Source: Candidatus Latescibacterota bacterium
Lineage (GTDB): Bacteria > Latescibacterota > UBA2968 > UBA8231
NCBI GenBank assembly: GCA_965248355.1
Contig: OZ252098.1
Coordinates: 3,264,001-3,328,000 of the forward strand
DNA: 64,000 bases
Direction: 5' to 3'
Shown here: positions 30,857 through 35,995 of the stretch, piece after piece
How positions within the stretch are numbered: position 1 is the stretch's first letter
Layout of the letters: each line of letters begins with the position of its first letter
Notes under the pieces: model-generated
The model's input: only the letters and a program-made list of their open reading frames with translations
Databases searched by the model: none
Told to the model about the DNA's origin: nothing
Program-made: the position numbers and the translations under genes

Positions 30857-33136
30857 ATGGACCTCCTCGAGCCCATCTCGCCGGTCCTCGATCCCCACCT
30901 CCGCCGCGAGTTGCAGCCCGGCGAGCTGCTGCTGGCGCTGCTGGCGACCGACCTCGACCTCGACGGCCGCTACGGCGAGAACTGGCTCGCCCTGACCGAC
31001 GAGCGCATCCTGGTGCTGCAGGCCAACGGCGGCGCCCCCGAGGTGCGGAGCTGGCAGCTGGAGCAGGTGCGCCGCATCCAGACCCGCAGCCACGTGGGCA
31101 GCGGCTCCCTCCTTCTGGAGATGCCCGACGGCACCCACGAGCTGGTGCGCTTCTCCCAGGGCAACTACTTCAAGTTCTCCGCCGTGCCCCAGGCCGTCGA
31201 GGCGGCCAAGGCGGAGCCGGTGGAAGCCGACGACGGGCAGGCGCAGGAGGCGATCCCCCCCCGCCGGGTCGAGCACTGCGAGAGCTGCGGCCGGGCACTC
31301 AGACCGGGCTCGAAGGTCTGCCCCCACTGCATCCGCAAGCGGGAGACCTTCTGGCGCCTGTTCTCCTACGTAAGGCCATACAGGAACACGGCCATTCTCG
31401 GCTTCCTCCTGACCGTGTGCATGACCGGCGTGAGCCTGCTGCCGCCGCAACTGAACCGGATCCTCATCAACGATGTCATCACGCCGGTCCTCGTGGCCCG
31501 GGGGGAGTCGCCGCCCGAGGGGCCCCTGGTGCCCCCGGCGGAGAGCGTGACCCTGCTCGCCATGGTCGTTCTCGGCCTGCTGGGCGTCCACTTCGGGCGC
31601 ATGATCCTCAACGGGGCCCGCACCTGGACCCTCGGATGGCTGGGCCAGCGCGTCACCTACGACCTGCAGATCGAGATCTTCAACTACCTGCAAGCCCTGT
31701 CCCTGTCCTTCTACTCCCGCCACAGCACCGGCCGCATCATGACCCGCGTCACCCAGGACACGGAGCGCATGCGGGACTTCATCACCACCGGATTCCAGGA
31801 CCTGCTGGTGGCCCTGCTGACCCTCGTGGGAATCGGCATCGCCCTGGTCTGGATGAACTGGGAGCTGGCCCTGCTGGCCCTGTTGCCGACGCCGGTCATG
31901 CTCTTCGTCACTTCGATGTACCGCAAGCGGATCCACTGGGTCTTCCACTCCATCTGGCGGAGAGTCGCCGACCTGAACGGCCAGCTGGCCGACACCATTC
32001 CCGGGGTCAAGGTGGTGAAGGCCTTCGCCCAGGAGGAGCGCGAGATGCGCGCCTTCGGCCGGCGCAACACCGAGCTCCTCGCCGCGCGCATGGCCTCGGT
32101 GAAAATGCGGGCCTGGTTCCAGCCCGGCATCGCCTTCATCACCGCCACGGGCGCGGTGATCCTGTGGTGGTCCGGCGGCAACCGGGTGCTGGAGGGCACG
32201 CTGAAGATCGGCGACCTCCAGGCCTTCATCGCCTACATGATGATGTTCTACGGCCCGGTGCGGGAGCTGAGCCGGCTGTCCGACACGCTCGAGCGGGCGG
32301 CCACCTCGGCGGAGCGCGTCTTCGAGATCCTCGACACCGAGCCCGAGGTGTTGGAGGATCCCGGCGCCCGGGATCCGGGGGTGATCGAGGGGCGCGTCGA
32401 GTTCCGCGACGTCTCCTTCACCTACGACGGCGTGGGCCGCATCCTCGACCGGGTGAGCTTCACCGTCGAGCCGGGGGAGATGATCGGGCTCGTGGGCCAC
32501 TCGGGCGCCGGCAAGTCGACCCTCGTCAACCTGATCTCCCGGCTGTACGACGCCGCCGATGGCGAGATCCTCGTCGACGGGCAGCCCATCACGGGGCTGC
32601 GGCAGAAGCCGCTGCGCGCCCAGATCGGCGTGGTGCTGCAGGAGCCGGTGCTCTTCCAGGGGTCGATCGCCCGGAACATCGCCTACGGCCGGCCCGACGC
32701 CGGCCGGCCGGAGATCATCGCCGCCTCCCGGGCCGCCAACGCCCACCACTTCATCATGCGCTTCCCCGACGGCTACGACACCGAGGTGGGCGAGCGGGGA
32801 GGCCGCCTCTCGGGCGGCGAGCGCCAGCGCATCTCCATCGCCCGCGCCCTCATCGGCAACCCCCGCATCCTGATCCTCGACGAGGCCACGAGCTCGGTGG
32901 ACACCCAGACCGAATTCGAGATCCAGGAGGCTCTCGAACGGCTCATCGCCAACCGCACCACCTTCGCCATCGCCCACCGCCTGTCGACGCTGAAGAACGC
33001 CGACCGCCTCCTCGTCCTCGACAAGGGCCGCATCGTCGAGGAGGGCACCCACGCTCAGCTCCTCGCCCGCGAAGATGGCGTCTACCGCCGGCTCGTGGAC
33101 ATGCAGACCGAGCTGGCCAGGGTGAGGGCCCTGTGA
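30857..33136 (+). CDS. Fused ABC exporter (TMD+NBD) with N-terminal extension and CxxC..CxxC motif
   Basis: GHSGAGKST, LSGGERQR, ILDEATS and AHRLST; six TM segments; CESC...CPHC before the TMD. Confidence 0.93.
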   Translation: MDLLEPISPVLDPHLRRELQPGELLLALLATDLDLDGRYGENWLALTDERILVLQANGGAPEVRSWQLEQVRRIQTRSHVGSGSLLLEMPDGTHELVRFSQGNYFKFSAVPQAVEAAKAEPVEADDGQAQEAIPPRRVEHCESCGRALRPGSKVCPHCIRKRETFWRLFSYVRPYRNTAILGFLLTVCMTGVSLLPPQLNRILINDVITPVLVARGESPPEGPLVPPAESVTLLAMVVLGLLGVHFGRMILNGARTWTLGWLGQRVTYDLQIEIFNYLQALSLSFYSRHSTGRIMTRVTQDTERMRDFITTGFQDLLVALLTLVGIGIALVWMNWELALLALLPTPVMLFVTSMYRKRIHWVFHSIWRRVADLNGQLADTIPGVKVVKAFAQEEREMRAFGRRNTELLAARMASVKMRAWFQPGIAFITATGAVILWWSGGNRVLEGTLKIGDLQAFIAYMMMFYGPVRELSRLSDTLERAATSAERVFEILDTEPEVLEDPGARDPGVIEGRVEFRDVSFTYDGVGRILDRVSFTVEPGEMIGLVGHSGAGKSTLVNLISRLYDAADGEILVDGQPITGLRQKPLRAQIGVVLQEPVLFQGSIARNIAYGRPDAGRPEIIAASRAANAHHFIMRFPDGYDTEVGERGGRLSGGERQRISIARALIGNPRILILDEATSSVDTQTEFEIQEALERLIANRTTFAIAHRLSTLKNADRLLVLDKGRIVEEGTHAQLLAREDGVYRRLVDMQTELARVRAL

Positions 33137-33636
33137 GCGGTCCCCGCACGAATCCCCCCGTCGACCCGGCCCTCGACGCGTCGGCCCTGCGGATTCGCCG
33201 CAACGGCCGCGTCCTGCTGACGGTGGAGACGGGCGGGGAGCGGTTCGACGACGTCTCCGTGCGGCGGGCCTTTCCCCTGGAAGTGGCGGACGCCTTCATC
33301 GGCCTCTTCGACGCCGGCGGCGAGGAGATCGGCCTCCTCGAGTCTCTCGACGGCCTCGAGGAGGAGAGCCGCACCGCCCTGGAGGACCAGCTCGCCCTGA
33401 CCTACTTCCTGCCGGTCATCACCTCGATATCGAGGATCGGCGAGGAGTACGGCGTGGTCCGCGCCGACGTGGAGACGACGAGAGGACCCCGTCAGATCGA
33501 GGTCCGCGGCATCCGCTCCAATATCCGCGTCCTCTCCCGCAACCGGGCCCTCATCGAGGACACGGACGGCAACCGCTACGAGCTGCGCGACTTCCATCTC
33601 CTGCCGGCGATCACCCGCGAGGTCCTTGGTCTCTAG
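33133..33636 (+). CDS. DUF1854-like protein
   Basis: [28 protein letters not shown] and [13 protein letters not shown] overlap with the ABC gene. Confidence 0.75.
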
Positions 33637-34153
33637 CGCCTCCGCCCGACAGGTCCAGGCCGGCCTCGTACACGTCGTAGTGGCGGCGGGAGAACAGGGC
33701 GAAGAGGACGCGCTCCGGCCTATCGTTTCCCGACAGGTGCTCCCGCACCGTCTCCACCGCCACGGCGCCCGCCGCTTCCACCGGATAGCCGTAGACCCCG
33801 CAGCTGATGGCCGGAAAGGCGACGCTGGAGAGGGCGTGGGCCGCCGCCAGGGCCAGGCTGTTGCGGTAGCAGGCGGCCAGCAGTTCCGGGTCCCGGTCCG
33901 AGCCGCTGTAGACGGGCCCCACCGTGTGGATCACGCGGCGCGCCGGCAGCCGGTAGCCGCCGGTGATGCGGGCCTCGCCCGTGGGACACCCTCCGAGGGT
34001 TCGGCATTCGGCCAGCAGCTCCGGCCCCGCGGCCCGGTGGATGGCCCCGTCGACGCCGCCGCCGCCGAGGAGACTCTCGTTGGCGGCGTTGACGATGGCG
34101 TCCACGGCGAGGGTGGTGATGTCTCCCTGAAAGAGCTCGAGCCGGTTCCTCAT
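33611..34153 (-). CDS. ymdB: Macro-domain O-acetyl-ADP-ribose deacetylase (YmdB-like)
   Basis: [31 protein letters not shown] and [12 protein letters not shown]. Confidence 0.92.
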
Positions 34154-35166
34154 GCCACGCACAGGAAGTCCCTTTCCTCCTTCAGGCCCATGGCGGCCAG
34201 CTGGTCGCGGATCAGGGCCCGGGCGCCGCGGGAGGCCACCGCCGCCAGCAGGATCGGCCGCTGGTGCGACCGCCAGAACGGCATCAGCTCCCGGGACGAC
34301 AGGATCGGTACGCCGCGCAGGGTGGCGCCGATCCTGGCCGGCGCGATGTCGATGAAACACACCGGCTCGTGCCCCGCCCGGATCAGGTGCTTGGAGAGCC
34401 GCCGCCCCGTTCGACCCGCCCCCCAGACCATGAGCCCGTCCCGCCCTTGCAGCGGGCCCCGGGCGAGGTAGTGGGCCTTGGCGCGCAGGAAGTTCTCCAC
34501 CGAATAGCGGCCGTCGGTGCGCGTCGCCCGGCCGGGGTGCTCGCGCCAGCGCAGCAGCGGCGCCGCCACCTTGGCGAACCGCCGGTCGGCGGCGTGATAG
34601 CGCAGCCACAGGTCGTAGTCCTCGGCCCAGCCGCGCTCCTCGTAGGCGCCGAGAGCGAGCAGCTCCTCGCGGCGCAGCAGGGCCGACGGATGGGCGATGG
34701 GGCTCTCGATGAAGATCTCCCGGCAGATCTCCTCGTGGCGGACAAGGGAGTTCTGCCACTCCACGTAGCGGCGGAAGCCCTCTGCCACCTCCCCGTCCGA
34801 GAAGACCTCCACCTGGGTGCCGACGACGCTCACCCCGGCGTCCGCCTCGGCGACCTCCAGCTGCCGCTCCAGGCGGTCGGGCATGCACAGGTCGTCGGCG
34901 TCCATGCGCGCCACGTAGCGCCCACGGCACTCGGCCAGGCCCCGGTTGAGGGCCGCGAGCAGACCGGCGTGGTCGATGCGCACGACCCGCAGGCGCCGGC
35001 CGGCGCGCGACGCCAGCAAAGCCGCCGTGCCGTCCGTCGATCCGTCGTCGACCACCACCACCTCGTGATCCTTCTCCGTCTGGTCGGCCAGACTGTCGAG
35101 GGCGGACCCGAGGGTGGAGGCGCTGTTGTATGTGGGCAGGAGGAAGGAGACGAGGGGCGTCGACAT
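34150..35166 (-). CDS. GT2 glycosyltransferase with C-terminal Rossmann-like domain
   Basis: LPTYN, VDDGSTD, RMDADD and EDYDLW; C-terminal [11 protein letters not shown]...FIDI. Confidence 0.9.
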
Positions 35167-35233: not shown

Positions 35234-35995
35234 ATGATTCACCTCAAGTCCGCCGCCGAGATCGAGAGAATCCGGGCCAGCTGCCGTATCGCGGCCGAGG
35301 CCATGGCTCTGGTGCGCGACGCCATCGCCCCGGGGGTCTCCACGGCGCGCCTCGACCGCCTCGCCGACGACCACATCCGCCGCCGGGGCGGCGTGGCCAG
35401 CGCCAAGGGGTACCGGGGATACCCGCGCAGCATCTGCGTCTCCATCAACGAGGAGGTCGTCCACGGGATTCCGGGACGCCGCCGGCTGCAGGCCGGGGAC
35501 ATCCTCTCCGTCGACATCGCCGTCCGCAAGGACGGCTACCACGGCGACATGAACGTCACCTTCGGCGTGGGCGATGTCAGCCCCGCGGCCCTCGATCTGA
35601 TGGAAACCACACGCCGGGGGATGGAAGCCGGTCTGGCGGCCAGCGTCCCCGGCGCTCGTCTGGGAGACTTGGGACACCGGATCCAGCAGCACGTGGAGAG
35701 CCGGGGGTACTCCGTGGTCCGCGACTACTGCGGTCACGGCATCGGGCGCGCCTTCCACGAGGAGCCGCAGCTGCTCCACTTCGGCGAACCCAACCAGGGG
35801 CGCCGGCTCGAGCCGGGCACCGTCCTCACCGTGGAGCCCATGGTCAATGCCGGGGCGCCCGAGGTCCGCGTCCTCGACGACCAGTGGACGGCGGTCACCG
35901 CCGACGGATCCCTGTCCGGCCAGTTCGAGCACACCGTGGCGGTCACCGAAGAGGGCCCCGACGTGTTGTCCCGCTTCGACGACCTGTCCTTCTGA
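35234..35995 (+). CDS. map: Methionine aminopeptidase type I
   Basis: CVSINEEVVHGIP, DGYHGD, GHGIG, FHEEP, EPM and QFEHT. Confidence 0.96.
   Translation: MIHLKSAAEIERIRASCRIAAEAMALVRDAIAPGVSTARLDRLADDHIRRRGGVASAKGYRGYPRSICVSINEEVVHGIPGRRRLQAGDILSVDIAVRKDGYHGDMNVTFGVGDVSPAALDLMETTRRGMEAGLAASVPGARLGDLGHRIQQHVESRGYSVVRDYCGHGIGRAFHEEPQLLHFGEPNQGRRLEPGTVLTVEPMVNAGAPEVRVLDDQWTAVTADGSLSGQFEHTVAVTEEGPDVLSRFDDLSF

Follow-up and report, generated by a model that had tools for sequence, protein, structure and literature searches.

The stretch of DNA analysed here (the window; 64,000 nucleotides) comes from contig OZ252098.1 of a Candidatus Latescibacterota bacterium and covers its positions 3,264,001 to 3,328,000. 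The gene in question encodes P0001, a predicted glycosyltransferase of 338 amino acids (aa), whose open reading frame (ORF) runs on the minus strand from an ATG at 35164-35166 to a TGA at 34150-34152. An earlier note on the window had described the product as a glycosyltransferase family 2 (GT2) core followed by an unusual C-terminal domain and had quoted six protein strings from it, all of which were found in the translation of P0001 in the order given. It had also placed the gene in an ATGA overlap with a macro-domain gene and divergent from map. The overlap is seen in the sequence, the Macro protein is recognized by PF01661 (E 1.5e-46) and by NF001664 (O-acetyl-ADP-ribose deacetylase, 232.1 bits, above the cut-off of 200), and a Peptidase_M24 gene starts on the plus strand after a gap of 67 bp. 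The features are as follows.

34150..35166, minus strand: glycosyltransferase gene encoding P0001, 338 aa, stop included (ORF list and translation; full-length homologues with 57-98% identity; AlphaFold2 model)
34447..35166, minus strand: GT-A (GT2) catalytic domain, aa 1-240
34891..34902, minus strand: DxD-type motif D89-A-D91-D92 (in MDADD), putatively for metal and nucleotide-sugar binding (conservation)
34618..34623, minus strand: E182-D183 (in AEDYDLW), putative location of the catalytic base of an inverting GT2 (conservation)
34153..34446, minus strand: C-terminal basic mini-Rossmann (CoA-binding-type) domain, aa 241-338
34405..34422, minus strand: glycine-rich loop G249-A-G251-R-T-G254, Rossmann GxGxxG (read from the sequence; conservation)
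34348..34350, minus strand: D273, end of the second strand of the C-domain, the classical Rossmann ribose-binding position (putative role)
34150..34153, minus strand: ATGA overlap of the glycosyltransferase stop and the macro-domain start (sequence)
33611..34153, minus strand: downstream Macro-domain gene of the O-acetyl-ADP-ribose deacetylase type, 180 aa (PF01661, NF001664)
35234..35995, plus strand: map, methionine aminopeptidase (Peptidase_M24), divergent (PF00557, E 6.1e-52)

PF00535 (GT2) matched P0001 over aa 7-170 with an E-value of 8.9e-34 and was the only Pfam domain above cut-off. We built an AlphaFold2 model and a conservation analysis on 108 diverse relatives with 37-51% identity to P0001. 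The model had a mean predicted local distance difference test score (pLDDT) of 97.8 and a predicted template modelling score (pTM) of 0.94. P11, R87, D89, D91, D92, W137, and D183 were invariant across the 108 members, and the near-invariant residues included E182 (99%), Y134, N139, E154, P156, H159, P160, W207, R213, G249, and G251. Metal-dependent GT-A enzymes need DxD and acidic base motifs, and GT2 enzymes invert the configuration of the sugar that they transfer. The MDADD (DxD) and AEDYDLW (ED) motifs of P0001 would provide what an active metal-dependent GT-A enzyme requires, and a GT2 (GT-A) domain with a DxD motif is also expected of members of the animal queuosine-tRNA galactosyltransferase family QTGAL/B3GNTL1. 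No transmembrane segment was found in P0001.

We compared P0001 with 25 listed NCBIfam polysaccharide equivalogs, among them EpsE, EpsD, TuaG, WcaA/WcaE, PgaC, and PglI. All of them scored far below their cut-offs and matched the N-terminal core only, with EpsE as the best hit (103.4 bits versus a cut-off of 450). A sequence search of the Protein Data Bank (PDB) with P0001 likewise returned GT2 cores only. The solved structural neighbours of the catalytic domain were all polysaccharide, teichoic-acid, or glycolipid enzymes (K4CP, SpsA, TarS/TarP, RmlT, and WrtF). In the Foldseek and VIA-align comparisons with solved structures, no chain spanned both domains in the arrangement of P0001, and no QTGAL entry was found.

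The C-terminal 100 aa of P0001 fell below every Pfam and NCBIfam cut-off, yet they were confidently folded in the AlphaFold2 model. Residues 245-338 gave sub-threshold matches only, to TrkA_N (E 1.7e-3) and to the N-terminal part of NeuD/PglB/VioB proteins (E 2e-4). Weak matches were also obtained with 47 family C-termini: PF02629 CoA_binding in 42 of the 47 (best E 2.9e-8), TrkA_N in 23, and PglD_N in 8. A Foldseek search with the C-domain alone added Rex C-domains, VioB/PglB N-domains, and WbaP, all with marginal E-values of 1e-3 to 1e-2. The domain shows the CoA-binding-type Rossmann fold (PF02629/PglD_N-like) together with its glycine-rich loop. G249 and G251 were kept in at least 90% of the 108 members, and W53, G54, G56, and G59 (in the numbering of the C-terminal alignment) were invariant in the 47 sequences. 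The position of D273, which follows strand 268-272 of the model, was acidic in 100% of the 108 members.

The two halves of the protein differ in charge. The median isoelectric point (pI) of the 108 members was 5.7 for residues 1-210 and 10.3 for residues 211-338, where it exceeded 8 in 98% of them, and 15 basic positions in the C-terminal part were kept in at least 80%. Judged from composition, this charge split would be compatible with a polyanionic or nucleotide-containing acceptor. P0001 is best described as a soluble, cytoplasmic, inverting GT2 with a two-domain architecture of the QTGAL type, its accessory domain being basic and nucleotide-binding.

P0001 is a typical representative of a bacterial family that is stand-alone, unnamed, and very large. 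A full-length search of a 5.8-billion-protein set gave 4,774 proteins at E<=1e-3 among 8,000 candidates scored. The best 120 matches had 57-100% identity to P0001, and 119 of these covered 97-100% of the query. When 1.84 billion cluster representatives were searched exhaustively, 2,548 of them matched at E<=1e-30, and the best 150 were mostly full-length proteins of 325-365 aa. According to record titles and the protein atlas, the family occurs in Latescibacterota, Gemmatimonadota, Chloroflexota (Anaerolineales), Verrucomicrobiota, and Acidobacteriota, and further in Pseudomonadota, Myxococcota, Bacteroidota, and metagenome-assembled genomes labelled KSB1/Deferribacteres.

In Latescibacterota, the C-domain profile matched 89 of 168 genomes, 84 of them strongly. 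The carriers were single-copy, apart from one genome that gave an additional weak match. Among the Verrucomicrobiota sampled, 15 of 151 genomes had the family. Two genera of Latescibacterota, g24 (G045-G059; 0/15) and g16 (G150-G154; 0/5), carry no glycosyltransferase of this family, although their genomes are 84-100% complete and all have tgt. In two other genomes (G122 and G138), only a glycosyltransferase fragment with an in-frame TGA was found, and the gene may be broken. Eight of 50,697 phage records matched in a tblastn search, none with query coverage of at least 80% and none with the C-domain.

We then considered the likeness to QTGAL. QTGAL, formerly B3GNTL1, galactosylates queuosine (Q) in tRNA-Tyr; the earlier note had said so, and excerpts of PMC11755703 and PMC12313893 state the same. 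According to an excerpt of PMC12518689, the sugar of galactosyl-queuosine (galQ) is β-galactose on the homoallylic hydroxyl. There, galQ and mannosyl-queuosine (manQ) are treated as animal tRNA modifications, with enzymes named only recently and a purpose called unknown.

The earlier note had likened P0001 to B3GNTL1, and in the protein atlas its nearest non-bacterial look-alike was a eukaryotic cluster. In a look-alike search that excluded clusters with bacterial-type Pfam sets, the top remaining cluster was 100% eukaryotic (diatoms commonest), with a length of 511 aa, a score of 0.98, and 196 of 256 shared features. Its automatic name, 'putative UDP-GlcNAc:betaGal beta-1,3-N-acetylglucosaminyltransferase-l...', is of the B3GNTL1 type. 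The next cluster, from Bacillota, combined GT2 with PglD_N/CoA_binding and fits the assignment of the C-domain. Rank 3 was a cluster of 50 Uroviricota GT2 proteins of ~418 aa with a score of 0.93.

As a weak check, the six strings that the earlier note gives for human B3GNTL1, which are unauthenticated, were also compared with P0001. They gave a summed BLOSUM62 score of 144 and lay in order. Against 2,000 shuffles of P0001, the same strings gave a mean of 76.4 (standard deviation 8.5, maximum 109) and were in order in 0.25%, and against 57 generic long GT2 proteins they gave a mean of 99.3 (maximum 133) with none in order. The consensus of the 108 members was closer than P0001 itself to these unauthenticated human strings. 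This comparison bears on the strings as quoted and is no test of likeness to the human sequence itself. We regard P0001 as probably a true two-domain homologue of QTGAL.

All of the best 120 matches in the 5.8-billion-protein search were close bacterial relatives, and all of the best 150 in the search of representatives scored at least 230 bits and were unnamed. Searches for proteins longer than 441 aa, with a 251-aa fragment and with a fragment alignment, gave no more than long forms from high-GC bacteria, fusions, and generic GT2 proteins, and the cluster names of 19 proteins included no eukaryotic B3GNTL1. Walking towards eukaryotes through the members most like the six strings led no further, as the clade of the window itself already scored highest. 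Two eukaryotic matches, P0327 (Pylaiella) and P0329 (EukProt), were rejected as two-domain homologues. Both correspond to the GT2 part without the C-domain: P0329 aligns over residues 4-217, and P0327 aligns in three pieces over 1-216.

Our favoured, if tentative, reading is that P0001 glycosylates queuosine in tRNA, which we regard as possible rather than probable. In this scheme, D89/D91/D92 of the acidic N-terminal domain would serve to bind a divalent metal and a UDP-sugar, and the sugar would be transferred with inversion, with E182/D183 as the base region. The inversion that is characteristic of GT2 would fit a β product from a UDP-α-sugar. A family-specific lid at aa 130-160, which contains the invariant W137 and the near-invariant Y134, N139, E154, P156, H159, and P160, may help to hold the acceptor. 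Together with this lid, the basic C-terminal Rossmann domain (GxGxxG and D273) may hold a nucleotide-containing, polyanionic acceptor. The likeliest such acceptor would be RNA, namely the cyclopentenediol of queuosine-34 in a tRNA with a GUN anticodon, and the product would be hexosyl-queuosine.

The genome that contains the window (5.50 Mb in one contig) carries both tgt and queA, each far from the glycosyltransferase gene. Across Latescibacterota, tgt was found in 164 of 168 genomes. Completeness is 67-89% for the other four, of which three encode the glycosyltransferase. Orthologues in genomes that lack tgt had been named beforehand as an observation that would speak against a role on queuosine. 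In fact tgt accompanies the family in 101 of 104 carriers (86/89 in Latescibacterota and 15/15 in Verrucomicrobiota), and the three exceptions are 86-89% complete. This result is nearly uninformative, though, because tgt is near-universal in the phylum and its co-occurrence with the family is almost weightless.

Some rare long forms carry additional domains. The whole two-domain module is fused to TudS (2-thiouracil desulfurase, PF04463) in P0200 and P0361, to CYTH in P0263, and to a class-I S-adenosylmethionine (SAM) methyltransferase in P0213. Excerpts of PMC10611767 and PMC11417400 give 4-thio-UMP and, for the RudS form, 4-thiouridine (s4U) in tRNA as substrates of TudS-type enzymes. By analogy, the fusions may be a weak hint of nucleotide or RNA chemistry.

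Several observations weigh against a role on queuosine. We examined the neighbourhoods of the 80 closest loci and of 13 Verrucomicrobiota loci (93 in total), using tblastn with the Tgt and QueA of the genome itself, and neither gene lay within ~6-7 kb of the glycosyltransferase in any of them (0/80 and 0/13). No other recognized tRNA-modification gene was adjacent, with RsmI-like genes convergent in only 4 loci. The co-occurrence with tgt does not discriminate, about half of the tgt-bearing genomes of the phylum being without the glycosyltransferase (79/168 lack the family). The TudS fusions represent one lineage, because P0200 and P0361 are 59% identical, and the fusion partners were found as neighbours in 0 of the 93 loci. 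The fold of the C-domain recurs in sugar-nucleotide enzymes (WbpM-type 3nkl, PglB/VioB, and WbaP) and in the NAD(H)-sensing Rex, so the domain could hold a small nucleotide instead of RNA. The proposed homology to QTGAL beyond the GT2 core is drawn from a language-model look-alike score and the six strings of the earlier note. Finally, a literature search limited to partial texts, with the discovery paper (Zhao et al., Cell 2023) outside its scope, found no glycosylated queuosine in bacteria. The parts covered of PMC11755703, PMC12313893, PMC12518689, and 10.64898/2026.06.28.735034 mention neither bacterial QTGAL homologues nor bacterial glycosyl-Q.

The open frame around tgt itself (G000:C1:3553368-3554459, L081) varies in length. 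It spans 679 aa in the genome of the window and 575-768 aa in 5 of 9 relatives of the same genus. Of the remaining four relatives, three have a frame of 387-425 aa and one has two separate matches. In other parts of the phylum the frame is mostly ~380-450 aa, though it reaches 762-790 aa in three further genera of the same taxonomic family. The long frame may represent an extension or fusion at the N-terminus, or just an open frame in high-GC DNA.

Among the other explanations, the one that survives best is a cytoplasmic GT2 whose acceptor is not a nucleic acid but, for example, a small metabolite, the precursor of a compatible solute, a lipid head group, or an envelope intermediate. The C-domain would then serve as a nucleotide-sensing, oligomerization, or membrane-association module, and the likeness to QTGAL would reflect common GT2 descent only. 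The structural neighbours of the catalytic domain, all of them polysaccharide, teichoic-acid, or glycolipid enzymes, are consistent with this explanation, as are the occurrence of the C-domain fold in 3nkl, VioB, PglB, and WbaP and the automatic name that the Joint Genome Institute (JGI) gives to relatives ('glycosyltransferase involved in cell wall biosynthesis'). Anionic lipids or polymers could just as well be the ligands of a basic domain. However, P0001 has neither a transmembrane segment nor an export partner, and the NCBIfam polysaccharide equivalogs remain far below cut-off.

The gene neighbourhoods also argue against an envelope acceptor. The earlier note had placed the gene outside any polysaccharide cluster, and its neighbours in the window are indeed map, Macro, DUF1854, and an ATP-binding cassette (ABC) transporter, the last two convergent and on the Macro side. 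We scanned 106 flanking ORFs from 60 related loci and 24 from 12 Verrucomicrobiota loci against Pfam. Sugar-pathway genes were limited to one ORF in each set, a sugar epimerase (L043) and an RmlD-like reductase (L130), which are the only neighbours in favour of a role in glycan synthesis. No polysaccharide export, flippase, polymerase, or initiating-transferase genes were present among the scanned flanks, and clustering of orthologues in lipopolysaccharide (LPS) or exopolysaccharide (EPS) loci, which the note had named as counter-evidence, was seen in none of these 60 and 12 loci. A single-copy, stand-alone gene with varied neighbourhoods across phyla is unusual for envelope glycan synthesis, and the nearest atlas look-alike is a B3GNTL1-type cluster. 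We consider a non-nucleic-acid acceptor a serious alternative, albeit an unlikely one.

A less likely alternative is another nucleic-acid or nucleotide acceptor, either a different modified base or ribose in tRNA or rRNA, or a free nucleotide or nucleoside. It would agree with the intact ribose/phosphate-binding Rossmann fingerprint of the basic C-domain, and with the absence of the enzyme from about half of the tgt-bearing genomes of the phylum. The fusions to TudS (thiouracil, 4-thio-UMP, or tRNA s4U), CYTH (triphosphate chemistry), and a SAM methyltransferase point in the same direction, as do the convergent RsmI-like rRNA methyltransferase genes in 4 loci. However, each fusion is rare and its partner never recurs as a neighbour, and the only characterized enzyme that bears the name of the look-alike acts on queuosine.

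A role with the coupled Macro protein, in which P0001 would, for instance, modify ADP-ribose, O-acetyl-ADP-ribose, or an ADP-ribosylated substrate by glycosylation or other processing and its Rossmann domain would bind the ADP moiety, is improbable: the ATGA overlap with an O-acetyl-ADP-ribose deacetylase-type gene and the resemblance of the C-domain to the Rex NAD(H)-binding and CoA-binding domains, which in each case accommodate an ADP moiety, speak for it, but Macro follows the glycosyltransferase in only 9 of the 80 closest loci, all close relatives, the slot in sister lineages is empty or filled by an unrelated ~270-aa ORF without a Pfam match, and the gene is absent from 13/13 Verrucomicrobiota loci. 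The earlier note had reported the macro coupling; the overlap is real, but it is not a family trait. Even within the closest lineage, Macro abuts the glycosyltransferase in L001-L003 and L007 and stands apart from it in L008 and L010-L013.

The gene neighbourhood was rejected as a functional clue more generally. Among the 80 closest loci, map adjoins the glycosyltransferase gene in 18 and DUF1854 is present in 15, and these, like Macro and the ABC transporter, are syntenic in the closest lineage only. The gene is stand-alone and housekeeping-style, and its surroundings tell little. The recurrent neighbours in the 60 scanned loci were an FlK-like hotdog thioesterase (17), MscS (15), RsmI-like methylases (4), NuoA (4), and GNAT acetyltransferases (4). 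In 17 loci, mostly from Anaerolineales (L021, L028, L031, L034, L035, L041, L048-L050, L058, L060-L062, L064, L068, L071, and L078), the FlK-like gene (PF22636) lies 3' of the glycosyltransferase gene and is co-oriented with it. The MscS channel gene is divergent upstream in 15 loci. These arrangements are probably lineage synteny without an obvious functional link. The 12 Verrucomicrobiota loci had different neighbours, such as GH116, a circularly permuted ATP-grasp protein, Ser/Thr kinases, and the one RmlD-like protein.

In the window, a 759-aa ABC transporter of the fused permease-ATPase type and the DUF1854 gene occupy 30857-33636 on the plus strand, with a 4-base overlap at 33133-33136, and in 15 of 80 related loci the pair likewise lies downstream of the glycosyltransferase region. 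The convergent Macro (minus) and DUF1854 (plus) genes share ~26 bases at their 3' ends (33611-33636), leaving no room for a terminator between them.

If P0001 does glycosylate tRNA queuosine, a broader claim would follow the same lines: many non-model bacteria (Latescibacterota, Gemmatimonadota, Anaerolineae, Verrucomicrobiota, and others) would hexosylate tRNA queuosine, and the eukaryotic QTGAL would descend from the bacterial family. We regard this claim as doubtful at present. If it held, glycosyl-queuosine, so far seen as peculiar to animals, would have arisen in bacteria. Should the architecture of QTGAL be common to this large bacterial family, there may be an RNA glycosylation in bacteria that has yet to be described, it would become possible to trace where QTGAL arose in evolution, and soluble, confidently modelled bacterial orthologues would be convenient for studying how a GT-A enzyme recognizes a tRNA base. 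If the acceptor is not RNA, the family would still amount to a very large set of cytoplasmic glycosyltransferases, so far uncharacterized, that have a distinctive accessory domain for nucleotide binding.

P0001 was compared with several groups of known proteins. It has the DxD motif in common with the classical bacterial GT-A/GT2 enzymes (Escherichia coli K4 chondroitin polymerase, 2z86; Bacillus subtilis SpsA, 1h7l; Staphylococcus aureus TarS/TarP; Listeria monocytogenes RmlT; and WrtF), with 20-27% identity in the core. However, those enzymes act on polysaccharide or teichoic-acid acceptors and lack a C-terminal CoA-binding-type domain, none of them aligns past about residue 240 in the P0001 arrangement, and P0001 has no envelope-glycan context. 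The C-domain, in turn, resembles the small CoA-binding-type Rossmann domains (the N-terminal fragment of the WbpM-like UDP-D-quinovosamine 4-dehydrogenase 3nkl, the Rex C-domain, the PglD/PglB/VioB N-domain, and the WbaP accessory domain), a likeness expressed in the weak PF02629 matches of 42 of the 47 family members. In contrast to these, it sits C-terminal to a GT-A domain and is strongly basic. The likeness to QTGAL/B3GNTL1 (animal, CAZy GT2) comes from the score and name of an atlas cluster. QTGAL is eukaryotic, whereas P0001 is bacterial, and bacteria make Q de novo. Nevertheless, both proteins have a GT2 domain, are cytoplasmic and soluble, and are similar in length (~340-360 aa in animals), and P0001 occurs in a host with tgt and queA.

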